Origin: Candidatus Latescibacterota bacterium | GTDB taxonomy: Bacteria > Latescibacterota > UBA2968 > UBA8231 | Direction of reading: 5' to 3' | Length of the DNA: 64,000 nucleotides | Assembly: GCA_965261395.1 (NCBI GenBank) | Contig: OZ253462.1 | Location: 3,040,001-3,104,000, forward strand | Shown: in pieces, positions 10,101 to 54,479 of the stretch | How the letters are laid out: each line of letters opens with the position of its first letter | How positions within the stretch are numbered: position 1 is the first letter of the stretch | The notes under the pieces: generated by a model | What the model was told of the DNA's origin: nothing | Seen by the model: only the letters and a program-made list of their open reading frames with translations | The model's database searches: none | Translations under genes and position numbers: made by a program

Positions 10101-11445
10101 CAGGCCATCGTCCGGCGATTATGTGACTTGGAACGACAGCCGAATCGTGGTTAGGGTTCCGGCTGGGGCACAAAGCGGAGACGTGAAGGTGGCCGTTATA
10201 GGGGCTGGAGTTTCCGGAACCAAGCGCGTTGTAGTGGAGTCCGCCTCCTCTCCTCAAATCACTTCTGTCTCTCCCCGCCAAGTGCAGTACAATCAGGTCG
10301 TGACCGTTATCGGAAGCAACTTCGGCTCGTCGCGGGGGAGTAGTTCGGTGCGAATTGGCTCGGTTGCGATCTCTTCGTTCACCACTTGGTCGAATACCAT
10401 AATCAGGTTTCGCGTTCCCACGAATGTGCGCTCTGGCAATGTCACCGTCCGCACCTCGGCAGGAACGAGCAACGCTATCCGCTTAGAGATAACAAGCCCC
10501 TACTTGGCCAGTGTTTCGCCGAGCAGAGTCAAGCCAGGGGACCGTTTGACACTGACCGGGGCCAATTTCAAGAGTAGCCGGGGGAGCGGTTACGTCCTGT
10601 TCACGCCTAATGTCCGGCCAACGTCCGGCGATTACGTGACTTGGAGCGATAGCCGAATCGTGGTTAGGGTTCCGATTGGGGCGCAAAGCGGAGACGTGAA
10701 GGTCGTCGCTACCGGGTCTCAGTCTTCCGGGACTAAGCGCATTATTGTTGAGGGCGATGAAGGCGAAGTGGTGGAGTCACTGCCGAGTAGAGGACTTTTC
10801 GGCTACAGTCCGCCTGCGGTTACCAAAAATCCCAAAAACGTCAAGTTCGGCCTTGGGGGGGCTAGTCGCGATCTCGCGTGTTATTTTTCGGTAAAGGAAA
10901 TAAGCGATGGCGAAATCGATATTTTTCTTAACGAACAATCTTACGCCTATATTCCAGCGAGCGAGGATTGGACGCATTGGTATATCATCTTAGACCGCGC
11001 AGACCTGCGTTCTGGCACAAACATTATCGAGTTCCGCAATCTCTTCAACCAAAACCGCACCTCATCTTTCGCTCGCTGGCAGTTGAAGGATGTGTGGGTG
11101 GGGGAACCACCACCCAGTGCTAAGCCCGTCGCAGGGGCGCAGCTCTTGTCCAAGTTGCCGGATGGACTGGTTTCCGGCCTAAACGATCCCTTTCCCACGC
11201 CATTCAACGCGGAAGTGACCATCCCTTTTGCCTTGGCCGAGGCCGGCCCCGTGCGGCTTGTCGTCTATAATTTGATGGGACAGCAGGTTCGCGTGTTGGC
11301 CGATGGATGGGTGGATGCTGGCGCGCACAGTATGCGCTGGGACGGTCGTACGGCGGCGGGTGTAGAGGCTGCTTCGGGGGTCTATTGGGCTGTGTTGCAT
11401 GTCGGTGGTGCGGTTCAAACGGCTAAGTTGGCGTTGATTCGCTGA
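7102..11445 (+). CDS. Secreted S8 subtilase paralog with 8 IPT/TIG domains and FlgD-like C-terminal domain
   Basis: Same D/H/S triad; four two-domain repeats; C-terminus nearly identical to 3888..6872. Confidence 0.92.
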   Translation: MKLINRYRIMTALFLGVFGYVPLWGQDIDFTPDRPDGPAKIQSALWELAIPGAAKPTRDLQDTVVVILVPHPGQASASIDTSSLAALGGRVLAQSKSLMRVSVPASSLLAVSELPGVRFVRRPYRPHAQQIIFSEGGNLIKAYDNYFEGVKGQGVKVAVIDGGFKGADELPGNMPDSWRYLDHTSEGIYAGESVHGTACAEIVHDVAPEAELTLLKVGNLVDLENAKDLCIREGIDIINHSMTWYGTGIGDGEGIACDIVDDAADKGILWVNAASNSAKSHYYQPWSDRDSDRWHNFKGDDETIGFEAEKGTEISVYLTWNDWPETRDDYDLYLYFSNSSGELESVDQSTDVQSGSGREPVEWIEYTAERSGQYHILVRKSPDARSRRLKIWSFHRNLDFEYSSPEGSIGIPADAEGAMSVGAIYHDYYNLGRIEDYSSRGPTLDGRIKPELVAPTGVSTVSYAPDGFFGTSAAAPHVAGAAALIKSANPSYSRTQLWDALVDATVDIGPRGRDNDSGYGKLVLPIMQVSANTSPRISSVSPQTVQTNGIVTVSGSNFGSSRGSSSVRIGSVVIPSSAFTSWSSSRIRFRIPVNTPPGNLTVRTSQGTSNAIRLQITSPYLTRISPTRIETGNRLTLTGGNFGDRRSTGYVLFISNVRPSAADYVSWSNSRIVVKVPARARSGNVQVTTSNGTSGTKLLQIESRSPQISSVSPRRVQYNQVVTVTGSNFGSSRGSSTVRIGSVVIPSSSLASWSNTRIRFRVPTNMRSGNVTVRTSTGTSNAIRLEITSPYLASVSPSRVKPGDRLTLTGANFGSRRGSGYVLFAPNARPLASSDYVVWSGSRIVVKVPARARSGDVKVVTGAGTSGGKRIVVESVAPQISSVSPRQVLYNQVVTVTGINFGSSRGSSTVRIGSVVIPSSWLDSWSNTIIRFRVPTNMRSGNLVVRTSKGTSNAILLEIISPYLGSVSPSRVKPGDRLTLTGANFRSSRGSSYVLFAPNVRPSSGDYVTWNDSRIVVRVPAGAQSGDVKVAVIGAGVSGTKRVVVESASSPQITSVSPRQVQYNQVVTVIGSNFGSSRGSSSVRIGSVAISSFTTWSNTIIRFRVPTNVRSGNVTVRTSAGTSNAIRLEITSPYLASVSPSRVKPGDRLTLTGANFKSSRGSGYVLFTPNVRPTSGDYVTWSDSRIVVRVPIGAQSGDVKVVATGSQSSGTKRIIVEGDEGEVVESLPSRGLFGYSPPAVTKNPKNVKFGLGGASRDLACYFSVKEISDGEIDIFLNEQSYAYIPASEDWTHWYIILDRADLRSGTNIIEFRNLFNQNRTSSFARWQLKDVWVGEPPPSAKPVAGAQLLSKLPDGLVSGLNDPFPTPFNAEVTIPFALAEAGPVRLVVYNLMGQQVRVLADGWVDAGAHSMRWDGRTAAGVEAASGVYWAVLHVGGAVQTAKLALIR
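8701..10750 (+). repeat. Intragenic tandem repeat, 4 units of ~515 bp (paired IPT domains)
   Basis: Units begin ~8701, 9214, 9730, 10249 (xPxI[ST]SVSP...SPYL...). Confidence 0.9.
11430..11445 (+). repeat. Direct repeat: subtilase 3' end GGCGTTGATTCGCTGA (also 6857-6872)
   Basis: Matches 12163-12178 at 15/16. Confidence 0.75.
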
Positions 11446-11535
11446 GCCGAATCGTTGTCGCCACCAAGCGGACTTGGGTTGACAACGTGAAAACGACTCT
11501 TGAATCTCCTACATAGTCCTAAAGAGGAGATAATC

Positions 11536-12096
11536 ATGTTTAACGAAGAAAAGGCTACTGAACTCGCTGCTAGCATTCTGTCGTGGGGCGGCTCGATGAA
11601 GTTTATCAAGCTGCTCAAACTCATCTACCTAGCTGATCGCGAGGCGCTGGACCGGGAAGGGCATAGCATCTCCACTGATCGCTGGGTATCGATGAAACAC
11701 GGCCCGGTGCCCATTCAGACGTACAATCTGATACACCAAGAAGACGACCCCGATCGCCATCCTGTGTGGAACCAGTACATCGAGAACCAAGCAGATTACT
11801 GCATCGGTCTAAAGAAAGAGATAGGAATAAACCACCTGTCTGAAGCGGAACAGGCGATCGCCGAGGATATCTGGAAGCAGTACGGCCATCTACCCCCTTG
11901 GGGTTCCAATGGTATCGTCGAGCTTACTCACCGTCTCCCCGAGTGGGAAAATCCCGAAGAAGATCCGCACGGTCCCCAAGCGACACCCATTCCTGTCCGA
12001 CGCATCCTGCTCGCCTTGAAGAAGAGCGACGAAGAAATCCAAGCTATCTTAGAGCTGGAACAGACGGACGCTTGGCTGGATGGGATCTTGGCGTGA
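11536..12096 (+). CDS. Panacea/SocA (DUF4065) family antitoxin
   Basis: KLLKLIYLAD, HGPVP, LTHRLPEW motifs; GAGGAG RBS. Confidence 0.88.
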   Translation: MFNEEKATELAASILSWGGSMKFIKLLKLIYLADREALDREGHSISTDRWVSMKHGPVPIQTYNLIHQEDDPDRHPVWNQYIENQADYCIGLKKEIGINHLSEAEQAIAEDIWKQYGHLPPWGSNGIVELTHRLPEWENPEEDPHGPQATPIPVRRILLALKKSDEEIQAILELEQTDAWLDGILA

Positions 12097-12146
12097 TACG
12101 GGCTGGCACCGTCGTCCAGTCGAAAGTCGAACCCTACCTTGAATAG
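12093..12146 (+). pseudogene. 17-codon ORF coupled to the antitoxin, possibly a toxin remnant
   Basis: GTGA overlap; MIRAGTVVQSKVEPYLE*. Confidence 0.35.
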
Positions 12147-12162
12147 ACGATCTGCCATAGAC

Positions 12163-12178
12163 GGTGTTGATTCGCTGA
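12163..12178 (+). repeat. Orphan copy of the subtilase 3' end (GGTGTTGATTCGCTGA)
   Basis: 13 bp perfect and 15/16 match to 11430-11445, including the stop codon. Confidence 0.75.
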
Positions 12179-12183
12179 ACAGC

Positions 12184-12212
12184 TTGACAGGTGCGAGCGG
12201 CCCTTTTACTTT
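12184..12212 (+). promoter_or_regulatory. sigma70 promoter of the trp/aro operon
   Basis: TTGACA-17 nt-TACTTT. Confidence 0.7.
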
Positions 12213-12221
12213 TGGCTCGTT

Positions 12222-12302
12222 ATGAATTTTTCGCCTTACATTCGTCGCTGGTGGCGCGCTTGGTATTCCCCGATCAGAGAGAAAGGTGCGTCCATCCGCT
12301 AG
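12222..12302 (+). CDS. trpL: Trp attenuation leader peptide MNFSPYIRRWWRAWYSPIREKGASIR
   Basis: 26 aa with tandem TGG-TGG plus a third Trp, located between the promoter and the terminator upstream of trpE. Confidence 0.85.
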   Translation: MNFSPYIRRWWRAWYSPIREKGASIR

Positions 12303-12328
12303 ACTGCGACGAGATGAATTTTCAATCC

Positions 12329-12360
12329 AACGCGGACGCCCTCGGGTGTCCGCGTTTTTT
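12329..12360 (+). terminator. Attenuator terminator
   Basis: AACGCGGACGCC-ctcg-GGTGTCCGCGTT plus T run; upstream GCGTCC (12288-12293) can pair with GGACGC as an antiterminator. Confidence 0.88.
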
Positions 12361-12378
12361 ATGTACTTGGAGAACGCC

Positions 12379-14556
12379 ATGACCATTCACACGGAAACCT
12401 TTCGCACGGCTGGCGGCGTCGAAGTCAAGCGCCAGACCGAGGAATTGTCCATAGAAAGGCCACTAAAGTTCCTGCTCGAACGGCTCAATACCCACCGGGG
12501 TGCCGTCTTTGCCAGCGGCTACGAGTATCCAGGGCGCTATAGCCGCTGGGACATTGGCTTCGTCGATCCGCCGCTGGAGCTGGTGGCGCGTCAGCGCGCC
12601 TTTGCCTTCCGGGCGCTCAACGCACGCGGCGAGATGCTGCTGGAGACCTTTCGCCGCAGCCTCGCCAAGCACGAGCATGTGATGGAGCTGGAGCTAACCG
12701 ATGGCCAGCTCAAAGGCACAGTGGCCCCCATGCCCGAGTACTTCCCCGAAGAGGAGCGCTCCAAGCAGCCGACGATCTTCAGCGTCCTGCGCGCCCTGGT
12801 GGCACAGATGCGAGCCGAGGGCGAAAATCACTTGGGCTTTTACGGGGCGCTGGGCTACGACCTGGTACTCCAGTTTGAGCCGCTCCAACTGCACCATCCG
12901 CGCCGCGAGGACCGACCCGATCTGCACCTTTTTTTGCCAGACGAACTAGTCGTCGTCGATCACCGCAAGGAGCAGGCGCGGCGTTACCGCTATGAATTTG
13001 CCGCCGACGGGTTGTCAACCGAGGGCATGGAGCGAGGCACGGACGCCGTGCCCTATGTGCGCGGCGCGGCAACCGAGATCTCGTGCGACCACGCCCCCGG
13101 GGAATACGCCGACAAGGTGCGCGAGGTCATCGCCGGTACTGAGCGCGGCGACTTCTTTGAGGTGACGCCGAGCCAAGTGCTCAGCGCTGGCTATGCGGGC
13201 AGCCCGCACATCCTCTTTGAGAATATCCGCCGCAATAGCCCCAGTCCCTATGAATTCTTCATCAACCTCGGCGACGAGTATCTGATCGGTGCTTCACCCG
13301 AGATGTTCGTGCGAGTTAGCGGGTCATTCGTCGAGACTTGTCCGATTGCCGGGACCATCGGCCGCGGCAAAACCGTGATGGAGGACGCCGAGCAGATCCG
13401 CGACTTGCTCAACTCAAAAAAGGACGAGGCCGAGCTGAACATGTGTACGGACGTCGACCGCAACGACAAAGCGCGGATTTGCAAGGAAGGCTCGGTGCGG
13501 GTGGTCGGGCGGCGGATGATCGAAAAGTACTCAAAGGTCTTTCACACCGTGGACCAAGTCGTCGGCGAGCTGAAGGACGACTGCGACGGATTCGACGCCC
13601 TGCTTTCGCATATGTGGGCGGTAACGCTGACCGGCGCGCCCAAACCGGCGGCCATGCAGAAGATCGAGGAACTGGAAAACTCGGCGCGGCGCTGGTACGG
13701 CGGCTGCATCGGCATGCTGATGTTTAGCGGCGAGATCAACACCGGGATCACCATCCGCACCGTACACTTGGAGGACGGCATCGCCCGAGTGCGGGTCGGG
13801 GCGACTCTACTCTGCGACTCGGACCCCGACGCCGAGGAGCGCGAAACTCGGGCCAAGGCCGAGACTTTTATCAACGCGGTGACCGGTGCCGCCGACGCCA
13901 AGAAGAAGAGCACCCAAATCGCGACCACCGGGCAGGGCAAGCGGGTACTCTTCGTCGATAACCGCGACTCCTTCGTGCATACGCTCGGCGATTACGTGCG
14001 GCAGACGGGAGCGGAGGTGGTGACGGTGCGCGCCGCGAGGTCGCGCGACGGCAGCGGCGCGCGGGGCCTGCGCGATCCCCAGCGCGTCTTCGCCGAGTTT
14101 GATCCCGATCTGGTCTTCATCTCGCCGGGGCCAGGCACGCCGAGAGAATTTGGAGTGCCGGAGCTGGTCAACGAGTGCGTACGGCGCGCGCTCCCGGTGT
14201 TCGGCGTGTGTCTGGGATTGCAGGGCATCGTCGAGGCTCTCGGTGGCGAGCTAGGGGTGCTTTCCTACCCGATGCACGGCAAGGAATCGACGATCCGCTG
14301 CACGCCGGAAGGAATTTTTGACGGGTTCCCCGCGGAGTTTGTCGCTGGGCGCTACCATTCGCTCTACGCCGTGCCAGAAAAGTTGCCCGAGTGCTTGCAG
14401 GTCTTGGCGCAGACCGACGATGGGGTCATCATGGCCGTGGAGCATCGCGATTTGCCGATAGCGGCCGTGCAGTTTCACCCCGAGTCGATTTTGACGCTCA
14501 AGGGCGATCTCGGCTTGCGGCTGATCGCCCAAGTAATAGGGAGTTTAGCGCGTTGA
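12379..14556 (+). CDS. trpE: Anthranilate synthase, fused TrpE(G)
   Basis: YEYPGRYSRWD, TGAPK, chorismate-binding domain; C-terminal GATase SPGPG, GVCLG, QFHPES. Confidence 0.92.
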   Translation: MTIHTETFRTAGGVEVKRQTEELSIERPLKFLLERLNTHRGAVFASGYEYPGRYSRWDIGFVDPPLELVARQRAFAFRALNARGEMLLETFRRSLAKHEHVMELELTDGQLKGTVAPMPEYFPEEERSKQPTIFSVLRALVAQMRAEGENHLGFYGALGYDLVLQFEPLQLHHPRREDRPDLHLFLPDELVVVDHRKEQARRYRYEFAADGLSTEGMERGTDAVPYVRGAATEISCDHAPGEYADKVREVIAGTERGDFFEVTPSQVLSAGYAGSPHILFENIRRNSPSPYEFFINLGDEYLIGASPEMFVRVSGSFVETCPIAGTIGRGKTVMEDAEQIRDLLNSKKDEAELNMCTDVDRNDKARICKEGSVRVVGRRMIEKYSKVFHTVDQVVGELKDDCDGFDALLSHMWAVTLTGAPKPAAMQKIEELENSARRWYGGCIGMLMFSGEINTGITIRTVHLEDGIARVRVGATLLCDSDPDAEERETRAKAETFINAVTGAADAKKKSTQIATTGQGKRVLFVDNRDSFVHTLGDYVRQTGAEVVTVRAARSRDGSGARGLRDPQRVFAEFDPDLVFISPGPGTPREFGVPELVNECVRRALPVFGVCLGLQGIVEALGGELGVLSYPMHGKESTIRCTPEGIFDGFPAEFVAGRYHSLYAVPEKLPECLQVLAQTDDGVIMAVEHRDLPIAAVQFHPESILTLKGDLGLRLIAQVIGSLAR

Positions 14557-14560
14557 AGAC

Positions 14561-15124
14561 ATGTTGCTGATACTTGATAACTACGACTCCTTTACCTACA
14601 ATTTGGTGCATTATTTAGAGGAATTAGGGGCTGCAACCAAGGTCTTGCGCAACGACCAATTGACGGTCGCCGAAGCGGTTGCACTCGCGCCAGAGCGCGT
14701 CGTTATCTCGCCTGGTCCTGGCGGCCCAGATCAAGCTGGAATTTCGTGTGCGCTCGTCGAGCGGTTGGCCGGTGTGATTCCCATTTTGGGCGTGTGCCTA
14801 GGGCACCAAGTTATCGCCCAAGTTTGCGGCGGGCGCATCGTGCGGGCCGGTGAGATCGTCCACGGTCGCGCGACGCCGGTGCAACACGACGGCCGCACGC
14901 TCTTTGCGGGGTTGCCCAACCCGCTCGTCGCCACCCGCTATCACTCGCTGGCCGTGGAGCAGGAGAGTTTGCCTGAGTGCCTCGAAGTATCGGCCACGAG
15001 TGAGGATGGGACGATCATGGGGATTCGGCACCGGCGATGGCCTCTCGAAGGGGTGCAGTTCCATCCCGAATCGATTTTGACCATAGAAGGCAAACACCTA
15101 CTGGCCAATTTTCTTCGCTTATGA
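14561..15124 (+). CDS. trpG: Stand-alone glutamine amidotransferase (TrpG/PabA)
   Basis: DNYDSFTYNL, ISPGPG, GVCLGHQ, QFHPES. Confidence 0.9.
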   Translation: MLLILDNYDSFTYNLVHYLEELGAATKVLRNDQLTVAEAVALAPERVVISPGPGGPDQAGISCALVERLAGVIPILGVCLGHQVIAQVCGGRIVRAGEIVHGRATPVQHDGRTLFAGLPNPLVATRYHSLAVEQESLPECLEVSATSEDGTIMGIRHRRWPLEGVQFHPESILTIEGKHLLANFLRL

Positions 15125-15135
15125 GGAGCGCAAGC

Positions 15136-16146: not shown

Positions 16147-16147
16147 G

Positions 16148-17907: not shown

Positions 17908-17917
17908 GGGAGAAACT

Positions 17918-18190
17918 GTGGAACTGAGTGACTGGCGCGAACGCATAGATAATATCGACCATCAACTGATTGATCTGCTCAACGAGCGCATGCAGTGCGC
18001 ACAAGAGGTCGGACGGATTAAAAAGGCTGCGGGAAAACCAATACGCGATCCCGAGCGTGAGCTCGATGTGATCGCCAAGATCAAAGCCTACAACCAAGGA
18101 CTCCAAGGGCTGGTTAAGGACGAGGCCCTAGAGGAACTCTACTGGCTGCTCATCGAACTGACCACCAACTTCGAGATCGAGGAGGATTAG
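17918..18190 (+). CDS. Chorismate mutase (AroQ class)
   Basis: RERIDNID..LLNER, GRIK, DPERE. Confidence 0.88.
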   Translation: MELSDWRERIDNIDHQLIDLLNERMQCAQEVGRIKKAAGKPIRDPERELDVIAKIKAYNQGLQGLVKDEALEELYWLLIELTTNFEIEED

Positions 18191-44288: not shown

Positions 44289-44289
44289 G

Positions 44290-45483
44290 ATGAAAGTCCT
44301 AGTTTCCAATCTCGGCAGTACCTCGTTTAAGTACAAGGTTTTTGCCATGCCCGAAGAAGTGGTTTTGGCGCGCGGTGGCATGGATCGGATTGGGGGTCAA
44401 GGCTCGGTACACACCTTCCAGATCGGCGGGGCTGACGAGGTTGAGCAGGCCGTGGATTTGCCCGACCACGCCAGCGCGATTGACGAGGCCCTCACGCGCT
44501 TGGCCGAGGGCGGGGTGTTGGCGTCGGTGGAGGAGCTGGACGCGGTGGGATTTAAGGCCGTACACGCGCGCGCGATTTCCGGGGTGGTCGAGCTCGACGA
44601 GGACGTGGTGGGGCGGATGGAGGATTTTTATCCGCTGGCCCCGGCGCACAATCCCGCGTACGTGGCGGCGATTCGGCAGTTTGCGCGGGTGGCCCCCAAG
44701 GCGCGGCGGGTCGGGTGCTTTGAGACGGCCTTTCACGGGGCGATGCCGCAGCGGCGCAAAATGTACGCAGTGCCCTACGCTTGGTATGAGCAATACGGCA
44801 TCCAGCGCTACGGCTTCCACGGGGCCAGCCACCGCTACGCTGCTGAGAAGGTCGTGGAACTGGAAGGGCGTGCTGACCTCAAACACGTCAACATGCACTT
44901 GGGCGGCTCCTCGTCGCTGTGCGCGATCAAGGACGGAGTCTCGCAGGGAGCGTCGCATGGGCTTAGCCCGCAGGGGGGCCTGCCGCAAAATAACCGCATT
45001 GGCGACTTGGACCCGTATGCTCTCGACTTGGTGATGCGCAACGAGGATCGCCCGTGGGCGGAGGTGCTGGAGCAGTGCGCCAGCGAGGGTGGCCTGTTGG
45101 GGATATGCGGGCACAGCGACATGCGCGATATTGAAGCGGGTGCGGCAAGCGGCGACGAGCGCTGTGCCTTGGCCATAGCCGTGCTGGCGACGTCGGCGCG
45201 CGACTGGCTGGGGGCTTTTGCGGTGGAGATGGGTGGGCTGGACGCGATTAGCTTTACTGGCGGCATTGGCGAGTATTCGGCTGCCGTGCGCGGCCAGATT
45301 CTGCGCGACTTGGAATTTCTGGGGGTGGTGATGGATGAGGCTAAAAATGAGGACGTGCAAGGCGAGGGTAGTCTGCACGCCGCGGCGAGCCGAGTGCCCA
45401 TTTACGTGCTGCGCACCGACGAGGAATTAGTGGTGGCGCGGCAGACGTGTGAGTTTTTGAGTGTGGGAACGGGGGAAGTATAA
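44290..45483 (+). CDS. ackA: Acetate/propionate kinase
   Basis: NLGSTSFK, APAHNP, RYGFHGASH, FTGGIGE, TDEE. Confidence 0.92.
   Translation: MKVLVSNLGSTSFKYKVFAMPEEVVLARGGMDRIGGQGSVHTFQIGGADEVEQAVDLPDHASAIDEALTRLAEGGVLASVEELDAVGFKAVHARAISGVVELDEDVVGRMEDFYPLAPAHNPAYVAAIRQFARVAPKARRVGCFETAFHGAMPQRRKMYAVPYAWYEQYGIQRYGFHGASHRYAAEKVVELEGRADLKHVNMHLGGSSSLCAIKDGVSQGASHGLSPQGGLPQNNRIGDLDPYALDLVMRNEDRPWAEVLEQCASEGGLLGICGHSDMRDIEAGAASGDERCALAIAVLATSARDWLGAFAVEMGGLDAISFTGGIGEYSAAVRGQILRDLEFLGVVMDEAKNEDVQGEGSLHAAASRVPIYVLRTDEELVVARQTCEFLSVGTGEV
45387..45461 (+). repeat. Direct repeat, copy 1 (ackA 3' region)
   Basis: 70/75 identical to 47629-47703. Confidence 0.95.
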
Positions 45484-45516: not shown

Positions 45517-46782
45517 GTGAAACTGAAATCTGTGGATATTGAAAACTATCGCGCCATTGAAAAGCTCTCGTTGTCGCTCGACCCGTCGCTGACGGTGTTG
45601 TACGGCGACAATGGGTACGGCAAGACGAGCATTCTGAGCGCGATTGCGGTGGGAGTGGGGAAGAGCCCAGAAATGTTGTTCGATATATCGGAGATTGATT
45701 TCCACGAAGAGGATCTGCGCGAGGGCGCGGAACATTCGCGAGTTTCGATCACCCCAATGGATGGGACCTTTTGGGAACACCAATCGGGACGGGAGGACGA
45801 CCAGATGAAGAAGCAGAGGCAGATTACCTTGTCTCGTTTTTTGGAAAGCCAGATCACAGGCAAGGTGGTCGATCTGCCGATTGCCGCCTTCTATAGTACA
45901 GATCGCATTATCTCGGGTCTGTCGAAGGTGCCAAGCGATCCCAAAGTCAAAATTCCTCGTACCGCCGCACTGAAGGGGGCACTCGACGCTCGTACGGACT
46001 TCGGAGGTCTCTTTACTTGGTTCTATTATAAGGAGGCCGAGGAGTTAAAAATACAGAGGGACCGGCGCGACTTCGATTATCAGCTAAAGGATATATCCGC
46101 GGTGCGCCAAGCGATCTCGTCCATGCTCCCAGAGGTGTCCGATCCACGCACCGAGTTGCATCCGCCCCGTTTTGTGGTGTCCTGGAAATCGGAGCAAGGA
46201 CAGGTGGAAAAGCTCTCGATCGACCAGTTGAGCGGTGGCTATCGCATTGTGCTCGCGCTCGCCGCCGATCTTGCCCGACGGATGATTACAGGCAATCCAC
46301 ATCGCGACGACCCGCTCGAATCCGAGGCAGTTGTCCTGATTGACGAGGTGGAACTGCATCTGCATCCAAAATGGCAGCAACGCATCTTGGGCGATCTGCG
46401 GCGGACGTTCCCGAATGCTCAGTTTATCGTCTCTACTCACAGCCCGCAGGTGCTGACTACGGTCGAGCCGCAGCGCATTGTGGAACTTGCTCGAGAAGGT
46501 GACCGCATTGTTGCGGGGGCACCGGCAGGGGCGACGTATGGGGCCGAGGCGGGGGATGTGCTTTCCGTGGTGATGGGCGTGAAAGAACGGCCCGAGAACG
46601 AGTTCACAAAAGCACTGGAACAATACCGGTATCTGATCAGGGAGGGACAGTGGGAGTCCGAAGAAGCCTTGGCTCTGCGAGCGAGTCTGGAGAGCATGTC
46701 TCCCTACGATCCGGCCCTTGATCGAGCTGACCTTGAAATCCGACGACGCAAGCTGTTTAAGCAGCGGGCCGAGTCGCCATGA
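45517..46782 (+). CDS. ABC-type ATPase, Septu PtuA-like
   Basis: GDNGYGKTS, LSGGY, LIDEVELHLHPKWQ, STHSP; AAGGAGG RBS. Confidence 0.85.
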   Translation: MKLKSVDIENYRAIEKLSLSLDPSLTVLYGDNGYGKTSILSAIAVGVGKSPEMLFDISEIDFHEEDLREGAEHSRVSITPMDGTFWEHQSGREDDQMKKQRQITLSRFLESQITGKVVDLPIAAFYSTDRIISGLSKVPSDPKVKIPRTAALKGALDARTDFGGLFTWFYYKEAEELKIQRDRRDFDYQLKDISAVRQAISSMLPEVSDPRTELHPPRFVVSWKSEQGQVEKLSIDQLSGGYRIVLALAADLARRMITGNPHRDDPLESEAVVLIDEVELHLHPKWQQRILGDLRRTFPNAQFIVSTHSPQVLTTVEPQRIVELAREGDRIVAGAPAGATYGAEAGDVLSVVMGVKERPENEFTKALEQYRYLIREGQWESEEALALRASLESMSPYDPALDRADLEIRRRKLFKQRAESP

Positions 46783-47540
46783 AGAGGGTTCGCGAATTGA
46801 GTAACCCGACTCTTGGCCTTGACGAATACCTCGGTTGTATGGGTGAAGACGCGGATTGGGACGAATTTCGCTCTCACAATTCGGGGGCGTCGTACCGCGA
46901 ACTCAGGGAAGCCCTAACCCAAAACCAACACGGACTCTGCGCTTACTGCGAGATTGCGATCAGAGGATGGCGTCGTCAGATTGAGCATGTGATCCCGCAG
47001 AGCGATGATGAATTGGGCAAAGCGAAGGCCCTCGATATAGCCAACATGGTCGCCTGCTGTATGGGTGGAACCGTGCAGGATGATGAGGATCGTTATCGCA
47101 GGCCCGTGGGACATAACACGAGCTGTGGTCAGGCAAAGGGAAGTCAGAACGACGAAAATTTTATTGACCCTCGGATACTACCCGCGTTGCCATCGCTTAT
47201 GAGGGTACTTGACAATGGGCTGATTGAAGCAGACGAAAATGCCTGCCAAATGGCCGGTTTTTCCCCTGACCGCGTGACCCGCACCATTGAGCTGCTGAAC
47301 CTCAACGCGGAACGGCTCCGGTCGGCGCGGGAGAAGCGGTGGAATGGCCTTGAGGAAGAGTTGGGACAAATTGACGATCCAGACGATCCAGATATGGTGA
47401 GTGATTGGATACGCTCTGAGCTGACGCCAGATGAGGACGACCGATTGGTCTCCTTCTTCACGACGAGCCGGTCGTACTTTGGTACGTTTAGCCTGCTTGC
47501 CGAGCGCGTCCTCGAACAACAACCTCAAGCGTGGATATAA
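46779..47540 (+). CDS. HNH endonuclease, PtuB/TIGR02646-like
   Basis: QHGLCAYCE, IEHVIP, N...C, SCGQAK; ATGA coupling. Confidence 0.85.
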   Translation: MKRVRELSNPTLGLDEYLGCMGEDADWDEFRSHNSGASYRELREALTQNQHGLCAYCEIAIRGWRRQIEHVIPQSDDELGKAKALDIANMVACCMGGTVQDDEDRYRRPVGHNTSCGQAKGSQNDENFIDPRILPALPSLMRVLDNGLIEADENACQMAGFSPDRVTRTIELLNLNAERLRSAREKRWNGLEEELGQIDDPDDPDMVSDWIRSELTPDEDDRLVSFFTTSRSYFGTFSLLAERVLEQQPQAWI

Positions 47541-47628
47541 GTGATGTCCGGCACTCGTCCAATTGAGCAGTAGCCGTCGATTGCCGAGCATAAGCATTAC
47601 ATAAAAACAACGATAGAGTACTTCCATT

Positions 47629-47710
47629 GAGCCGAGTGCTCATTTACGTGCTGCGCACCGACGAGGAACTGGTGGTGACGCGGCAGACTTGTGAGTTTTT
47701 GAGCCTATGA
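47629..47710 (+). pseudogene. Orphan ackA 3' end (direct repeat copy 2) with its own stop
   Basis: Encodes SRVLIYVLRTDEELVVTRQTCEFLSL*; TGA overlaps the ATG at 47707. Confidence 0.9.
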
Positions 47711-50694
47711 ATACACCAACGATATTCGAGACTTGTCATCCGCGAACGGATGTGCTCCAAGGGGCGATCTCCGAGGCCGATTTTGCGGCGGATTTGGCTC
47801 AAGTCATCGCCGGAACCGGAAGCGCAGAGTACGTTGATCCGGTGCGGTTTTTTGCCCACACCTATCCGACGAGGGGCTTGAAGAACTTACTCGCCAACGT
47901 CATGAGTCGGTTAAGTGGCAGGGGTGGAGACGCGGCGATCTTCCGTCTCGACACGTCCTACGGCGGAGGCAAGACCCACGGGCTGATTGCGCTAACGCAT
48001 GCGGCACGTAGCGCGAAGGACGTGGAGACAATTAAGGAGTTTGTCGATCCGGCGTTGTTGCCGCCAAAGCGCGTGCGCGTTGCTGCATTTGATGGAGAGA
48101 ATGCTGATCCGGCCAATGGGCGGGATATGGGCGGCGGCGTTCTCGCTCACACGCCGTGGGGTGAGATCGCTTACGCCTTGGCTGGAAAGGAGGGCTATGA
48201 ACGGGTCCGGCCAAGCGACGAAAACCATATTGCCCCTGGTGCAGAGACCTTACGGACGTTGTTCGGAGGCGAGCCGACGCTGATCCTGCTCGACGAGCTT
48301 TCGATTTATCTGCGCAAGGTGCGTCGCCTCGACGACGCAGGCGATCAGCTAACCGCCTTCCTGACCTCGTTGTTTAAGGCCGTAGAAGGCGCACCGAACG
48401 CGGCCCTCGTCTATACGCTGGCGATCGGCAAGGACAACCGTGCAACCGACGCCTATGGCGAGGAACACCAGTTTATCGCCGACAAGATGGCAGAGGCCGA
48501 AAGCGTTTCGGCGCGCAAGGCTACGATTTTGAATCCGACTGAAGAAGACGAGACGGTCCAGGTGCTGCGGCGACGCCTGTTCGAGAAGATCGACGAGGCG
48601 CAGATTCCAGCGGTGGTGGATGCCTATCGCCAAGTGTGGACGGCCCATGGCGAGTCGCTTGCCGATGAAGCTACTCATTCCGAGACCGCGGAAAACTTCC
48701 GGTCGAGTTATCCGCTGCATCCAGAAGTGCTGAAAACGCTGACTGGCAAGACGGCGACACTGAGTAATTTTCAACGGGTGCGCGGCATGCTGCGGCTTTT
48801 AGCGGGCACGGTGGCCCAACTTTGGGAAAACCAGCCTGCGGACGCGACTGCGATTCACCTCCACCATATTGATCCGAGCCACGAGCCGATCCGCCGCGAG
48901 ATAGTCACCCGCCTAGGACAGGCCGCTTATACACCGGCGATTACCAACGATGTCGCCGGATCGCCCGATGCCAATGCACTGGCGCAGGAAATTGACGCAG
49001 AGTACCATCGCGACCTGCCACCCTATGCCGCATATATAGCGCGGACCATCTTTATGCACACGCTCGCCTTCAACGACCCGCTTAAGGGGCTTTCACCGGA
49101 GCAGTTGCGCTATTCGGTTCTGGGTCCTGCGACGGACATCAGCTTCATTGAGGAGGCGCGGGGGAAGTTCATCGCTGAGTCCGCCTATCTCGACGACCGG
49201 CCTGGTGCGCCGATGCGTTTTCTCGCCGAGGCCAATCTGAGTCAGATCATCCAGCGTGAGGATCAGCATGTCGATGCGGGTGAAGCCCGGGCGGAATTGA
49301 ACGACCGTATCCGGGAGATTTTCAACGGTCGGACGTTTGCGCTAGTGCCCTTTCCCGGCGGACCGTTCGACGTGCCAGACGAGGTCGGCGACGGTCGTCC
49401 CCAACTCGCTGTTTTGTCCTACGATGCCCTAAGCGTTGGGGACTCAGTAGAGTGCGTTCCTGAATTGGTCGAGGGCATCTATAACCGCAAAGGTGTGGAG
49501 GGCACTGCCCTGCGGGCGTTGCGCAACCATCTGGTCTTGGTGGTGGCCGATGAAGCTCGTAAGGAAGCGATGCGCCGCAATGTCCGCCGTCGGTTGGCCC
49601 TGCGGGCACTCAAGCGGCCCGAACACCTCGCCGATCTGGCAGAGCATCAGCAGGCTAAGGTTCACCAATTGGAAGCGGCTTCCGAGAAAGACTTGGCCAT
49701 CAGTATCCAGCAGTGTTATCGGCATGTCTTCTATCCGTCGCGGAACCGAGTTGGCTCGGGGACGGTCGATCTAGCACATACCGCAATGGAACTCCCATCG
49801 GTGTCCGATACGCCCGGCAGCGGACAACAACAGATTGTGCGGGCGCTGCGCGAACTCAACAAGCTGCGCTTGGCCGAAGATGAACCTGATTCGCCAGCGT
49901 ATGTACGTGATCGCACACCGCTAAAGAAGGGCCAAATCACCACGCTAGCCTTGCGCGATGAGTTCCGCCGCGATCCAGGACTGCCCATCCTGATAGGCGA
50001 CGACATCTTCCTTAGAGGGATTCGGCGCGGCGTTGAGCAGGGTGACTACATCTACCAGCGTGGCGATTTGCTATTTGGGCCGGACGATCCGTCGGCTAGC
50101 ATCGCCATTGACGAACAAGCCCTAGTCTTTACCATGGCCTACGCCCGTAATAAAGGGATATGGCCCCGCTCTGAACCGACTCCACCGCCGGAGAAGGAAG
50201 CCCTCGCCGCCGAGAAACAGTCGAATGAACCTCCGGTCTCGTCCCAAGAATCGTCGTTTGATTCCGAAGGTGTACTCAAGGAGGCGTTGATCAAGCTTTG
50301 GGAGCAGGCACGCGATAGGAAGGTGGAAGCGGTTGGCATCCTGACCATTCGCATGTTTGAGGCTAGCGACTCCTTCCGTCTGTTGAATGTTGTGGGTGCT
50401 GTATCGGGAGCGGAAAAGATTATTTCTATCACGGGAGGGTACGAAACCCACGCTGGCGGCTCGTTTGAACTAAAGTTCCGAGGACCGGTGCCGGACGTGC
50501 AACCGGTGAGGGAGTTTCTCGAACCACAACTGCGCGCCGCCAGCGCCAACACGCTGACGGTGGACTTTCAATTGACCTTTGGTGACGGCTTGGCGATGAA
50601 GGGTGATGCGGCGGAGAAACTCACCGAGCGTCTTGCCAAGTTCACGAGCGGAGTGGCTTATGTGTCCGCGACGCCGAAGGTTGAGACCCAATGA
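47707..50694 (+). CDS. DUF499 AAA+ ATPase of a restriction-like defence system
   Basis: FAADL, YGGGKTH, TPWGEIA, LLDEL, YPLHP, FQRVRG. Confidence 0.88.
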   Translation: MNTPTIFETCHPRTDVLQGAISEADFAADLAQVIAGTGSAEYVDPVRFFAHTYPTRGLKNLLANVMSRLSGRGGDAAIFRLDTSYGGGKTHGLIALTHAARSAKDVETIKEFVDPALLPPKRVRVAAFDGENADPANGRDMGGGVLAHTPWGEIAYALAGKEGYERVRPSDENHIAPGAETLRTLFGGEPTLILLDELSIYLRKVRRLDDAGDQLTAFLTSLFKAVEGAPNAALVYTLAIGKDNRATDAYGEEHQFIADKMAEAESVSARKATILNPTEEDETVQVLRRRLFEKIDEAQIPAVVDAYRQVWTAHGESLADEATHSETAENFRSSYPLHPEVLKTLTGKTATLSNFQRVRGMLRLLAGTVAQLWENQPADATAIHLHHIDPSHEPIRREIVTRLGQAAYTPAITNDVAGSPDANALAQEIDAEYHRDLPPYAAYIARTIFMHTLAFNDPLKGLSPEQLRYSVLGPATDISFIEEARGKFIAESAYLDDRPGAPMRFLAEANLSQIIQREDQHVDAGEARAELNDRIREIFNGRTFALVPFPGGPFDVPDEVGDGRPQLAVLSYDALSVGDSVECVPELVEGIYNRKGVEGTALRALRNHLVLVVADEARKEAMRRNVRRRLALRALKRPEHLADLAEHQQAKVHQLEAASEKDLAISIQQCYRHVFYPSRNRVGSGTVDLAHTAMELPSVSDTPGSGQQQIVRALRELNKLRLAEDEPDSPAYVRDRTPLKKGQITTLALRDEFRRDPGLPILIGDDIFLRGIRRGVEQGDYIYQRGDLLFGPDDPSASIAIDEQALVFTMAYARNKGIWPRSEPTPPPEKEALAAEKQSNEPPVSSQESSFDSEGVLKEALIKLWEQARDRKVEAVGILTIRMFEASDSFRLLNVVGAVSGAEKIISITGGYETHAGGSFELKFRGPVPDVQPVREFLEPQLRAASANTLTVDFQLTFGDGLAMKGDAAEKLTERLAKFTSGVAYVSATPKVETQ

Positions 50695-51167
50695 CGCGCT
50701 TGGAGAGGATTGCTCAGATCAAAACACCGGAATCGGTACCCCGGTACGAGTTGCGGGTGTGCCGGCACGGGCCGGCCGATACCGAATACGAAATTTGGCA
50801 GATGCCCGCACCAGCCACACCGCAGGTCACATCGGCGCTGCGCGTTGCAGGGCTTAGAGGCCGAAACTTCGAACTGGTGGAGCACTGGGTGTTGAAGCGG
50901 CTTGCGCAATCTGGCCTCAAGCTCGACCGTAGTGAGGATATTAGGAAACGCGGCTACGCGCTCAGCGAAGACTTGGCACTGACGCTGGGGCTGTTGTTCC
51001 GCACGCTGGCCCCGATGCGCAGCCGCGCCAACATGCGGGCGGTGACCGAAGGTATTGAGATGATGGGACGCGAGGAGGCCGCCTATTGGTTGGGCATGGC
51101 GATGCATCGCAAGCATCCGCGCCGCGTGCTGATGGCTCTACGCTTTCTGCTGACGGAGCCGAAGTGA
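50691..51167 (+). CDS. Small accessory protein (DUF3780 position) of the restriction-like system
   Basis: ATGA coupling; EEAAYW motif; gene order. Confidence 0.65.
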   Translation: MTRLERIAQIKTPESVPRYELRVCRHGPADTEYEIWQMPAPATPQVTSALRVAGLRGRNFELVEHWVLKRLAQSGLKLDRSEDIRKRGYALSEDLALTLGLLFRTLAPMRSRANMRAVTEGIEMMGREEAAYWLGMAMHRKHPRRVLMALRFLLTEPK

Positions 51168-52318
51168 TGAGTGAGCAAGCTAGTATGCAAAGGACACGGA
51201 GGGACGACACCATGGAAACTCAGCAATCCGGCTGGTCGGCCGATGATGAAGAAATTGAAGGTCTGGATTCCGGGGACGAATCTTTAGGAGACTATCCTAT
51301 TGACGATATCCTGATTCGGAAAGATGATCGGTCAATTTTCGAAACTATCCGGCGGATCGATCAGGGCAATTATGTAATGGACCCCGATTTCCAGCGCGAT
51401 TTCATCTGGCCGGAGGATAAGCAAAGCAAGCTGATCGAATCCGTGATCATGCGCATCCCGCTGCCCGTGTTCTACATGGCGGAAGACGATGAAGGACGCA
51501 TGGTGGTCGTGGACGGTTTGCAGCGCCTGTCTACATTCCGACGATTTGTGAAAAATGAATTATCGCTACGTCTTCCAGATCGGAGCGAACTTGACAGCAA
51601 ACGGTTCTCGGATTTGTCGTCCAAACTCCAGAATCGCATTGAAGACTGCAACCTTATCTTCTACATAATCGACTCAAAGGCGCCTGACCGTGCTCGTCTG
51701 GATATCTTCGAGAGAGTGAACAGCGGCGCACCCCTCACTAGACAACAGATGCGCAACTGCCTGTTCATGGGACAGGCGACTCGTTTTCTGAAGGAGGAAG
51801 TGCAAACAGAGATTTTCTTGGAGGCGACAGGCGGAAGTCTCAATTTTCGGACCATGCGGGATAGAGAATTCGTTAATCGGTTTTGCGCTTTTCAGCTTCT
51901 AACTCTCGATGGCTATCGCGGGGATATGGATGAGTTCCTGGCCCGATGTCTTCAACATATGAATGATCTGCCGGAGGACGAACTGTCGCGATTGCGTGAT
52001 GACTTCCATAGGAGTCTGGCTAATAACGTTATGCTATTCGGGGACCATGCTTTCAGAAAGCACACACCGGAACAAGAACGGCGCAGTGTCCTCAATGCGT
52101 CCCTCTGGGACGTGATGTCCACCGGTTTGTCTCATTACACCAAAGACCAGATCAAGAAGTGCGCTGATCCTCTTCGTCGAGCCATCTATGGCCTGCTTGC
52201 TAACGAGGAATTCGGCGACGCAATCACTTACGGCACGAACAGCGCCAGAAGGGTAAGGTGTCGGTTTCAGATGACTCGGGAAAAATTTGAGGAGATTCTC
52301 GGTGCTCACACGGATTGA
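51167..52318 (+). CDS. DUF262 (ParB-like) protein, Menshen NsnA-like
   Basis: PDFQRDFIW, LIES, VVDGLQRL, IFERVNSG; alternative start 51212. Confidence 0.88.
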   Translation: MSEQASMQRTRRDDTMETQQSGWSADDEEIEGLDSGDESLGDYPIDDILIRKDDRSIFETIRRIDQGNYVMDPDFQRDFIWPEDKQSKLIESVIMRIPLPVFYMAEDDEGRMVVVDGLQRLSTFRRFVKNELSLRLPDRSELDSKRFSDLSSKLQNRIEDCNLIFYIIDSKAPDRARLDIFERVNSGAPLTRQQMRNCLFMGQATRFLKEEVQTEIFLEATGGSLNFRTMRDREFVNRFCAFQLLTLDGYRGDMDEFLARCLQHMNDLPEDELSRLRDDFHRSLANNVMLFGDHAFRKHTPEQERRSVLNASLWDVMSTGLSHYTKDQIKKCADPLRRAIYGLLANEEFGDAITYGTNSARRVRCRFQMTREKFEEILGAHTD

Positions 52319-53510
52319 TCTACAGCATTTCAAGTGCTTCACATCACTGAATTTGCCGCTCCGCCCGTTGACCTTGCTGTCGGGTGCCAACGCATCGGGG
52401 AAATCGTCCGTGCTACAGGCACTTGTCCTGCTGCATCAGACGATGCATGAACATGAATGGTCGTCGCGCCTGATGCTCAACGGTGCCGCTATTCGGCTCG
52501 GCACCGTAGCCGATGTGGTTGATCAAGTGCACGGTCGCCGCACTTGCGAGATTGCGTTGCTGGACGGTGAGGAAGCGCGTTTTCAATGGGGATTCACGGG
52601 CGAACCCGATGAGATGTCGATGGCGGTGACGCACGTCCATGTCGATGGTGTTGACGGTATCGACATGGACGAATCCAAGTCGCTTCAACCCCCGCTACCG
52701 CTCGACCTACCAATATCCGAGCCGCTTCACTACTTGCTGCCGCACCGCCCGTCGCCGCCGTCGGGTGTAGAATCACTGACCGACTGTCTTCGTGGGCTTA
52801 CCTACCTGACCGCCGAGAGGCTAGGGCCGCGCGAGACTTATCCATTGGAGGATCCTCAGCATACATCCGTTGTCGGGCCAAGGGGAGAACACACAGTCAG
52901 CGTCCTGTACTCCCGCAGGGACGAGCATGTGCTGGATGGCTTGACGATTGCGGACGTACCGCCGACACGGCTGCGCCAAGTCGAAGCCCGGATGAACAGA
53001 TTCTTCCCGGGCTGTGAGTTGGTTGTCGAAAAGATTTCTCGAACCAACGCAGTGACTTTGGGAATTCGGACATCGAGGAGTACGGAATTCCATCGTCCGA
53101 TTCATACCGGCTTCGGGTTGACGCAGGTTCTCCCGATCGTGGTGGCGGCCTTGTCCACAGACAAGGGAGGCTTGCTGTTGATCGAGAATCCAGAAGTGCA
53201 TCTCCACCCCGCCGGGCAGGCGGCGATGGGCGAGTTTCTCGCTGAAGTCGCGGCTGCAGGCGTACAAGTCATCTTGGAGACGCATAGCGACCATGTGCTG
53301 AACGGCATTCGGCGGGCCGTCAAGAAAGAGGTCTTGGCTCCTGACGATGCCGCCTTGCACTTCTTTCGACTGCAGCAGGACGATGAACAGGAAGGTGCTG
53401 TGCTGGTGGAAAGCCCGATCCTAGACCGCGACGGCAATGTCGACATGTGGCCGGAGGGATTTTTCGACCAGTTCGACAAAGACATGAATTACTTCGCTGG
53501 CTGGAGTTGA
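52302..53510 (+). CDS. AAA/ABC ATPase with DUF3696, Menshen NsnB-like
   Basis: GANASGKS, GFGLTQVLP, IENPEVHLHP, ETHSDH, WPEGFFDQ. Confidence 0.88.
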   Translation: MLTRIDLQHFKCFTSLNLPLRPLTLLSGANASGKSSVLQALVLLHQTMHEHEWSSRLMLNGAAIRLGTVADVVDQVHGRRTCEIALLDGEEARFQWGFTGEPDEMSMAVTHVHVDGVDGIDMDESKSLQPPLPLDLPISEPLHYLLPHRPSPPSGVESLTDCLRGLTYLTAERLGPRETYPLEDPQHTSVVGPRGEHTVSVLYSRRDEHVLDGLTIADVPPTRLRQVEARMNRFFPGCELVVEKISRTNAVTLGIRTSRSTEFHRPIHTGFGLTQVLPIVVAALSTDKGGLLLIENPEVHLHPAGQAAMGEFLAEVAAAGVQVILETHSDHVLNGIRRAVKKEVLAPDDAALHFFRLQQDDEQEGAVLVESPILDRDGNVDMWPEGFFDQFDKDMNYFAGWS

Positions 53511-53511
53511 C

Positions 53512-54468
53512 GTGGAACTCTTCGCCAACGACCTGTCGATTCACGGGCAATTCTACGACATACCTTCGTTTCGCGATGAGCTTGCGCGGCTAATGGCCAT
53601 GCGCAATGTCGCCCAGCGCTTCGGACGGGAGGTGTATTGCCATCGTGCGCTCCTAACCGCCAATCCTATACCGAATATGTCAATGCAACAGGCGCTTGGG
53701 CGTCTTCGTGAAAGCGAACGACGGGCAGCGATGAGTTGGCTGACTCGTAGTGGTCCGTTCTGGGATGATCTGCGCTGCCATGGTGTCAACGACTGGCTCG
53801 AATGCTGTGGCGATGTAGTTACAGAATCCGCCGTGGGGGAAGCGGCATATCGAAAACTGCACGAGGTCGAATGTGGGCTAGTTAGCGTCATACCGTCCAA
53901 TTGGGATTTCTCTCCCGTAGAGGTGACCTGGAGACGAGAGGACGAGGGATTGGACGACCTGAGCTCAAAGCTCGAAAATTGGCGAGACGCTGCCGCGCTA
54001 GAAAACAGCCTACAAGCTGCAGCGGTGCCCCTCCAGTCGTGGGACGATTTGCGAGATAACTCGACGAGCCGGTTTAGGCACCTGATGTTCGCCGACAACT
54101 GTTTCGAGCCTCTTACAAGGTTCCCGTTCGCCAAAGGCGCGGCGGAGCGCTTTGTTGTGCTGCTCGGCATTCTGGACCGGCTTGCGTGCGCCTTCGATGC
54201 AGACGGTGTGCAGACGCCCGAAGCCCAACAGATTTACGAAAACTACTTCAAAGGTAAAAATGCGTTGTTTTCGGACTCGTCGGAGTCGGAGAAGAGCCGG
54301 TTTCGTAACAAATTGATGTTCCCCCACCCGGAAGAGCCGGGGAAATCCCTGTTCTGCACATGGCATGGCAAGGTGCGTTCCATGACGCTCCGCCTGCACT
54401 ATTGGTGGTCTGGGCAATCCGGTGATCCAGTTTACGTCGTATATGCTGGGCCAAAGAGAACCAAGTAG
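53512..54468 (+). CDS. Putative effector (NsnC-like), possible C-terminal RelE-like nuclease
   Basis: Third gene of the triad; WHGK...RLHYW...VYVVYAGPK C-terminus. Confidence 0.6.
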   Translation: MELFANDLSIHGQFYDIPSFRDELARLMAMRNVAQRFGREVYCHRALLTANPIPNMSMQQALGRLRESERRAAMSWLTRSGPFWDDLRCHGVNDWLECCGDVVTESAVGEAAYRKLHEVECGLVSVIPSNWDFSPVEVTWRREDEGLDDLSSKLENWRDAAALENSLQAAAVPLQSWDDLRDNSTSRFRHLMFADNCFEPLTRFPFAKGAAERFVVLLGILDRLACAFDADGVQTPEAQQIYENYFKGKNALFSDSSESEKSRFRNKLMFPHPEEPGKSLFCTWHGKVRSMTLRLHYWWSGQSGDPVYVVYAGPKRTK

Positions 54469-54469
54469 T

Positions 54470-54479
54470 GAAGTGATGA
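54470..54479 (+). repeat. 10-bp direct repeat GAAGTGATGA (other copy 51161-51170)
   Basis: The two copies lie exactly at the borders of the three-gene insert. Confidence 0.7.

Follow-up and report, generated by a model that had tools for sequence, protein, structure and literature searches.

The 64-kb window analysed here (G000:C1:3040001-3104000, the whole stretch of DNA that was studied) belongs to the metagenome-assembled genome of a sponge-associated Candidatus Latescibacterota bacterium, which consists of a single contig of 6.55 Mb with 59% G+C and an estimated contamination of 8%; the DNA of the window is also present in sponge metagenome runs. Its genes were annotated by Pfam and PADLOC profile searches (Table 1). 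In the following, G-labels denote genomes (G000 being the genome studied) and L-labels denote loci or regions. Three defence or toxin–antitoxin (TA) cassettes, namely Panacea behind a subtilase gene, Septu behind the acetate kinase gene ackA and Menshen inside a Hma operon, had been proposed in a first-pass annotation to end with a second copy of the 3' end of the preceding gene. All three repeat pairs were recovered where they had been placed, with 15/16, 70/75 and 10/10 identical nucleotides, respectively. The first two pairs are real insertion scars of a kind found throughout this genome, and such scars probably result from homology-anchored insertion-duplication without a recombinase; the third pair does not exceed what chance would give.

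Table 1 Features at the peptidase–trpE-G and ackA–hydrolase loci of the window
Feature	Coordinates in the window	Strand	Description
S8 subtilase/TIG-repeat peptidase, upstream	3516-6872		Tandem paralog; Pfam
S8 subtilase/TIG-repeat peptidase, host	7102-11445	+	Host of the duplicated tail, which is common to the paralog; Pfam
Peptidase tail, copy 1	11430-11445	+	16 nt, peptidase stop codon at its end
Panacea cassette	11446-12162	+	PanA antitoxin-domain gene 11536-12096; 17-codon partner remnant 12093-12146
Orphan peptidase tail	12163-12178	+	15/16 identical to copy 1
trpE-G	12286-14556
ackA, acetate kinase	44224-45483	+	Left flank (L) of the island; Pfam
ackA tail, copy 1	45387-45461	+	75 nt
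Septu	45517-47540	+	PtuA 45517-46782, PtuB 46779-47540; PADLOC
HmaB N-terminus fossil	47544-47600	+	Decayed DUF1156 methylase start, 3' of PtuB
Joint	47601-47628	+	R head (pre-hydrolase spacer sequence, 21 nt, diverged) and 7 nt of filler
Orphan ackA tail	47629-47703	+	70/75 identical to copy 1
HmaC	47707-50694	+	DUF499 ATPase; Pfam and PADLOC
DUF7680 protein	50691-51167	+
Menshen	51086-54468	+	NsnA, NsnB, NsnC; fills the DUF7680-HmaB slot; PADLOC
10-mers	51161-51170 and 54470-54479		Either side of Menshen
HmaB	54502-57486	+	DUF1156 N6-adenine methylase
HmaA	57471-60581	+	PLD + SNF2 helicase
Pre-hydrolase spacer and alpha/beta hydrolase	60634-61395	+	Hydrolase 60667-61395; right flank (R) of the island

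Insertion scars at the peptidase and ackA genes

The two 16-nt copies of the peptidase tail share a 13-nt exact core that contains the TGA stop codon, and a third copy of this sequence, at 6857, is the tail of the upstream peptidase paralog. The enclosed PanA gene has a SocA_Panacea domain match (E = 3e-20); of the antitoxin and adjacent toxin of a Panacea TA pair, only the antitoxin domain is present, the partner being cut to 17 codons. At the partner position, G041 has 282 nt more and a 96-aa open reading frame (ORF) behind PanA, and the cassette copy in the window is decayed. Among the 31 genus genomes compared at this site (G000 included), the cassette was present in ten, and the site was empty in five (G013, G002, G001, G012 and G003), in which the peptidase tail abuts the region upstream of trpE. 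In these empty sites the two flank matches overlap by 16–18 nt, i.e., by one copy of the repeat, and comparison of the junctions demonstrated that the sequence past the stop codon is exactly that past the orphan copy of the window. In G002, the same cassette with both ends identical lies between the upstream peptidase paralog and the spacer that belongs downstream of this paralog, so that the cassette has occupied two paralogous sites sharing the gene tail only. The second peptidase gene of the window also contains, at 8702-10709, four tandem TIG-domain repeat units of 513–516 nt with 64–88% identity.

At ackA, the profile searches identified the cassettes more firmly than the earlier "-like" labels had: the PtuA ATPase (E = 3e-113) and the adjacent HNH-type nuclease PtuB (E = 3e-57), with genes overlapping by 4 nt, constitute a Septu system. 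The operon behind it contains a DUF499 ATPase, a DUF1156 methylase and a helicase carrying a PLD/HKD nuclease at its N-terminus and is thus a DUF499-centred Hma operon related to bacteriophage exclusion (BREX), its assignment to the HKD-helicase type following the passages of PMC12839542 on such loci. As seen from the gene order, Menshen lies within the Hma operon, which it splits, and Septu lies between ackA and this operon. The second copy of the ackA tail, read in the ackA frame, reaches a stop codon that overlaps the start codon of HmaC.

The ackA gene was present in 24/24 genus genomes of a first set, and in most of them homology to the gene of the window stops at approximately 45461, the end of the repeat. 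The interval between ackA and the hydrolase gene was compared in 12 relatives with 20-kb regions. It was empty, with a 12-nt spacer, in G009 (and also in G013, outside that set); it contained Septu only in G018, G001, G012, G006 and G003, two STAND-type (signal transduction ATPases with numerous domains) NTPases and Septu in G022 and G021, STAND NTPases only in G010, and Hma remnants that start exactly like the second copy of the window in G004, G008 and G011. In G007, ackA precedes HmaC and DUF7680. The ackA–hydrolase interval is therefore a hotspot of alternative alleles. The stacked arrangement of the window recurs with the same joint in G046, the orphan of which shares one orphan-specific change, and this indicates that stacking happened once and was then inherited or transferred.

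The STAND-type NTPases (ATPase_2; AAA_16 + TPR) of G022, G021 and G010 (L013 2313-6192, L016 2269-6951) are preceded by an orphan DUF7680 tail, which in G022 and G010 is retained 75 nt behind ackA; they gave weak PADLOC matches only (best E = 1e-5 to 2e-5), to the unrelated models mad8, PglX, HEase and TPR.

The joint of the window reads, in order, the end of Septu with the HmaB-head fossil, the 21-nt spacer copy (47601-47621, with its counterpart at 60634-60657), the 7-nt filler, the 75-nt ackA tail and HmaC. The fossil is clearer in G018 and G006, and HmaB-head fragments are also found 3' of PtuB in other phyla. At polymorphic synonymous sites, copy 1 of the ackA tail is like Septu-type tails and copy 2 is like Hma-type tails, i.e., each copy resembles the tails of the allele class located 3' of it. 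Copy 2 additionally has two nonsynonymous changes that are absent from the ackA tails of the relatives compared, one of the positions being common to the G046 orphan, and these changes fit the expectation for a dead fragment. The newcomer at ackA could have been either Septu or the Hma island.

One public run (X1) yielded a contig that joins 47618 to 60656 (depth 52), beside contigs covering Hma. This contig is no proof of excision, being the allele of a co-occurring relative or strain; the joint indicates that a Septu–hydrolase allele coexists with the stacked allele in nature.

Single-copy empty sites, the search for which the first-pass annotation had suggested, were found in relatives at all of the seven loci tested (Panacea, ackA, L068, L073, L082, L077 and L064), and at each of them they accompany a flanking duplication. 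At the five loci added to Panacea and ackA, a single copy of the segment links the host gene of the empty-site relatives directly to the flank on its downstream side. The L068 site, with a segment of approximately 237 nt that includes intergenic sequence, is empty in G019, G001, G020, G009, G012 and others. L073, with a Fic cassette, is empty in G021 and occupied in eleven genomes, and in four of the six genomes examined (G009, G044, G002 and G020) the orphan that follows the same cargo end has a length of only 17 nt. L082, the copies of which are 100% identical, is empty in G006 and G004, and its insertion was found in none of the five relatives searched; L077 is empty in G018, G046 and G004 and occupied in G022, and L064 is empty in G004, G018, G006 and G046. 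As relatives have empty sites with a single copy, joined at the repeat, the 16-nt and 75-nt pairs stand above chance, and the part of the earlier claim that concerned Panacea and Septu holds: these are real insertion scars. Beside the orphan tail of L064 (6227-6419) there is an element of approximately 190 nt that is found at many G022 sites with up to 99% identity and looks like a small non-autonomous repeat.

Menshen and the DUF7680-HmaB slot

The Menshen part of the claim did not stand. The system itself is well defined, with NsnA (E = 3e-116), NsnB (E = 3e-105) and NsnC (E = 5e-107) encoded by three genes in one operon. However, 62/5194 genes have a tail that matches a non-coding stretch 0.3–5 kb downstream over 10 nt or more, against 48/5194 in the upstream control, which corresponds to approximately 0.7 per window. 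Moreover, the 10-mer repeat is absent in 4/4 orthologous Hma+Menshen loci (G103, G091, G134 and G100) despite their homologous NsnC–HmaB spacers. It was rejected as a scar on both grounds. Menshen was not captured in this genome and is part of an old Hma+Menshen composite in the DUF7680-HmaB slot.

This slot is a genuine hotspot, and in many phyla. It is occupied in 7/7 Hma loci from other genera of the class. In a survey of 72 usable Hma loci from Acidobacteriota, Binatia, Alpha- and Gammaproteobacteria, Entotheonella, Longimicrobiales and others, it was empty (≤250 nt) in five, the remainder containing Septu and/or Menshen or other genes. Of the 72 loci, 15, from several phyla, have orphan tails of DUF7680 or heads of HmaB, so that the scars are not specific to this lineage, as had been thought possible. 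In G091 the order is Septu, HmaB head, HmaC-tail fragment, DUF7680 tail, Menshen and HmaB, and junction modules that join the head of a right flank to the tail of a left one, (R head)(L tail), recur between Septu and Menshen in this genome and three times in G103. In the Hma slot of G007 (L057 5798-7449), a four-gene cassette (an 87-aa ORF, a protein weakly similar to HATPase_c, a STAS-like DUF4325 protein and a PIN protein) is flanked by a duplication of at least 182 nt.

Three further observations concern the Hma genes themselves. The small DUF7680 protein is 70–89% identical (L118-L197) across metagenome-assembled genomes labelled as Latescibacterota, Acidobacteriota, Binatia, Alpha- and Gammaproteobacteria, Entotheonella and Longimicrobiales, which suggests a recent wide horizontal spread of this Hma variant. 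In G007 (L057 7694-10139) and G046 (L058 8890-11270), DUF7680 is followed by a three-gene module encoding proteins of approximately 240 and 200 aa and a metallo-beta-lactamase-fold protein of approximately 370 aa; the methylase and the helicase are absent at these sites. At 56571-56654 of the window, contigs of two public runs have 40 other letters in place of an 82-nt piece of HmaB, which may be a variable target-recognition segment.

Orphan gene ends across the genome

The whole genome was scanned for same-strand exact repeats 200–20000 nt apart, with multi-copy families removed and the matches extended. Pairs in which the tail-bearing gene lies upstream of the other copy represent the geometry of insertion, and the mirror orientation served as the control. 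Repeats of at least 16 nt with a 3' end 0–20 nt past a stop codon numbered 70 in the insertion geometry versus 32 in the mirror, against a background of approximately 28–51 per bin, and the pile-up of 3' ends in this interval was seen in the insertion geometry only. In the strict scan, where the other copy is mostly non-coding, the excess of duplicated gene tails anticipated by the first-pass annotation amounted to 54 versus 3 pairs, at approximately 40 loci. The gapped scan, with looser definitions, detected 62 tail pairs at 50 loci (mirror, 25 pairs at 20 loci) and 42 gene-head pairs at 36 loci (mirror, 16 pairs at 15 loci), the medians being 84 nt for the duplicated length, 0.89 for identity and 2.9 kb for spacing. 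Among the long tail pairs, 2/52 were at least 98% identical, and the median identity of 0.87 is near the between-species identity in the genus. The repeats are mutually unrelated, and the duplications range from 16 to approximately 350 nt.

A rule that repeats terminate precisely at the stop codon was considered and discarded, being partly an artefact of ungapped extension; in L068 the segment extends beyond the stop by 118 nt. Duplications also affect gene heads and in some cases continue into the intergenic region, so the supposed restriction to gene tails does not hold. Outside the window, genome positions 315552-318972 contain identical repeats of 37–41 nt that have the look of a CRISPR array.

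Cargo, recombinases and motifs

The cargo was annotated in a sample of 15 loci (30 proteins). Five loci contain defence or DNA-modification genes (methylases, PglZ + helicase, Fic, and helicase + DprA/SLOG), so that the defence specificity first suggested finds no support in this sample; six contain secreted repeat proteins (PD40, LRR, cadherin and FlgD_ig), and four are other loci or a false positive.

Five Pfam families were searched genome-wide, with 4 matches to Phage_integrase, 0 to Resolvase, 75 to DDE_Tnp_1, 6 to rve and 8 to TnpB. None of the five matched in 3040001-3104000, and the earlier remark that no recombinase is visible in the 64 kb thus holds for these families, other transposase families being outside the search. 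Neither Phage_integrase nor Resolvase matched in any of the 50 tail loci, and 46 of the 50 are without a match to DDE_Tnp_1, rve, TnpB or Phage_integrase. The cargo ends have no common 6-mer (at most 4/50, equal to random windows). The loci consequently differ from integrase islands, having no integrase (in the window or the 50 tail loci) and no common motif in place of a fixed attachment (att) core, and, as judged from the transposase matches and the length of the duplications, from transposons or insertion sequences (IS), the duplications not being of a fixed short length. As for integron cassettes, which are defined by an attC site and IntI, no tyrosine recombinase matched in the window. 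Ku had 0 matches in the whole genome; homologs of ComEC and DprA are present, which is no proof of competence. The 75 DDE_Tnp_1 matches, none of them in the window, fall into few groups of equal score, which represent several recently active IS families.

Discussion

The anatomy of the loci, the empty sites in relatives, the genome-wide excess and the lack of a recombinase or common motif were all observed directly, and they bear out the earlier suggestion of a general integrase-free, homology-anchored route. We consider the duplicated gene ends to be scars of recombinase-free, homology-anchored insertion-duplication, with a probability of roughly 0.7 and with the sub-route left open. To explain the anatomy, one homology-guided exchange within or close to the gene end is needed together with one joint made without homology; the recombination steps, the donor and the direction of each event are inferred. 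The incoming DNA would derive from a related genome that carries the same gene L with a different cargo behind it, and its integration would take one homologous exchange, within or close to the gene end, plus one illegitimate joint. For the exchange, either a re-circularised fragment could undergo a single crossover, or there could be one-ended invasion with subsequent end joining. The resident gene would be left intact with the cargo behind it, and beyond the cargo the gene end would recur as a displaced copy (S). When alternative alleles L-A-R and L-B-R meet, the result would be the stack L-A-(R head)(L tail)-B-R, represented in the window by ackA, Septu, the 21-nt hydrolase-spacer fragment with the 7-nt filler, the 75-nt ackA tail, Hma/Menshen and the hydrolase gene. 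By the single-crossover route, the (R head)(L tail) module would be the circle-closing joint. Once formed, S could provide a second homology arm through which the cargo spreads to other genomes or paralogs, as for the Panacea cassette, and could also be used for precise loss, for which, as the first-pass annotation pointed out, the repeats are rightly placed.

Several points weigh against insertion-duplication or limit the data behind it. The scan relied on crude gene calls, namely 5203 ORFs with a minimum of 90 aa, and covers the whole genome of this one lineage only. The mirror class of the gapped scan is not empty (20 tail and 15 head loci) and holds real intergenic repeats and small stop overlaps, and the candidate lists include at least two false-positive loci, i.e., CRISPR-like repeats (genome 315552, in the strict list) and MacB paralogs (L076). 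The ackA joint contains 7 nt of filler and no microhomology, as opposed to the deletion and 3–10 bp microhomology of canonical homology-facilitated illegitimate recombination (HFIR). The 16-nt S of Panacea is short for RecA-dependent exchange. The excision joint 45461->47703 was not among the public-run contig joints listed, which represent assembled contigs only and are silent on rare excision. Finally, the single-crossover variant predicts a reciprocal mosaic; the ackA copies are compatible with both routes, and at the three informative 5' positions of the Fic locus L073 copy 1 is donor-like and copy 2 resident-like. This pattern would fit one-ended invasion with end joining somewhat better than single crossover, the evidence being weak, as it comes from one locus with shared polymorphisms.

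The best surviving alternative is that a tandem duplication arose in situ first, as merodiploidy over a gene end and its neighbour, and that foreign DNA was later inserted at the joint or replaced the content of one copy. Transformation-induced merodiploids are described (PMC3784515), the final S–cargo–S or (R head)(L tail) anatomy would be the same, and two segments fit this course of events: that of G007 (182 nt and further homology), which covers the gene tail, the spacer and the head of the next gene, and that of L068 with its intergenic sequence. We nevertheless regard this explanation as improbable, since it requires two events per locus, since a steady supply of such duplications should yield many young identical pairs, in contrast to the 2/52 and the median of 0.87 found, and since the ackA copies differ at allele-class-specific synonymous sites.

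Even less probable is site-specific integration by a trans-acting recombinase, as also considered in the first-pass annotation, or by since-lost integrases, with the repeats as att sites. Integrative islands are classically recognised by direct repeats that rebuild a gene 3' end, the Panacea cassette used the same 13–16 nt sequence behind two paralogs, and the genome has three to four tyrosine recombinases. However, the repeats are unrelated in sequence and span the range from 16 to ~350 nt, the cargo ends lack a common motif, no tyrosine recombinase matched in the tail loci and serine recombinases are absent; besides, a divergence of 5–20% between repeat copies is atypical of att cores, and junction modules that hold fragments of both flanks are not a product of site-specific recombination.

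Chance matches or assembly artefacts, for which the Menshen pair at chance level and the origin of the contig from a metagenome with some contamination might speak, can be given next to no weight and are already refuted for the 75-nt and 16-nt pairs, since these pairs and longer scars recur in independent assemblies (G046, G007, G091, G103, G002 and G041), public contigs span the junctions of the window, and an asymmetry of 54 versus 3 is not expected.

Insertion-duplication as proposed here belongs to a known class of mechanisms, the natural footprint of which is unusually clear in this genome. It is like Campbell-type single-crossover insertion, a reversible event that leaves the homologous segment in direct duplicate on either side of the insert; experimentally, single crossover of re-circularised DNA gave duplications of 109–950 bp in 56/60 Escherichia coli clones (PMC3240628). 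In contrast to such laboratory events, those considered here are natural, the cargo consists of chromosomal genes of related genomes, S is as short as 16–75 nt, the circular intermediate is putative, and the Fic mosaic is without the expected reciprocal pattern. One homologous anchor combined with one illegitimate joint and no integrase is also the essence of HFIR, the products of which are described to have a recipient deletion of similar size and 3–10 bp microhomology (PMC3240628). Here recipient sequence is duplicated and not lost, and the ackA joint, the one examined, has filler, which sets these loci apart from such products. Of the two routes proposed, one-ended invasion with end joining is the one that resembles HFIR. 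HFIR is the mechanism proposed for orphan effector–immunity arrays of the type VI secretion system, Rhs and contact-dependent inhibition loci (PMC5361080). As described there, a conserved upstream gene serves as the anchor for a new module, which pushes the old 3' part downstream, much as in our loci; those arrays are composed of displaced toxin tips and immunity genes of one system, whereas the orphans found here are short dead tails and heads of housekeeping and defence genes, genome-wide and with mixed cargo. With integrase-borne islands in gene 3' ends the loci share direct repeats that restore the end of the target gene, and they differ in having no integrase, no fixed att core and repeats variable in length and sequence.

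Neisseria minimal mobile elements are alternative cassettes between conserved flanking genes that are exchanged by homologous recombination without a recombinase of their own. To our knowledge, duplicated flank fragments are not part of that concept.

The Septu and Menshen systems of the window fit the auxiliary nuclease modules embedded in BREX/Hma loci that are treated in a 2026 survey, the pertinent passages of which report dyads of an OLD-type ABC ATPase and an HNH protein, GmrSD-type and PIN modules inside BREX/DUF499 core loci and propose backup-effector roles for them (PMC12839542). These passages describe association and give no account of orphan flank fragments or of module entry.

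Tentatively, the orphan fragment could be viewed as a portable homology arm that travels with the cargo, which would make the cassettes a class of recombinase-free mobile units able to enter any genome or paralog with the same gene end; possible examples are Panacea behind two paralogs and Septu, which in several phyla carries an HmaB-head fragment. Defence islands and composite operons, Hma+Septu+Menshen among them, might then grow by allele stacking in place of allele replacement and shrink by recombination between scars. We put this forward as a possibility that is somewhat less likely than its opposite.

The window ends (61487-64000) in a gene for a large multihaem cytochrome with MtrC/MtrF-like domains, which continues past the window end.

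Many defence islands and accessory hotspots have no visible mobile machinery, and the entry of genes into them is usually put down to "homologous recombination of the flanks." In the orphan gene ends, single events are recorded in readable form, so that the position of the joint and the two alleles stacked can be recognised, and they show that different systems may build up side by side rather than replacing one another. If the signature is general, a scan for orphan ends could date and orient gene gain in uncultured bacteria, explain composite operons, e.g., BREX-related ones with embedded nuclease modules, and predict which cassettes are prone to precise loss.

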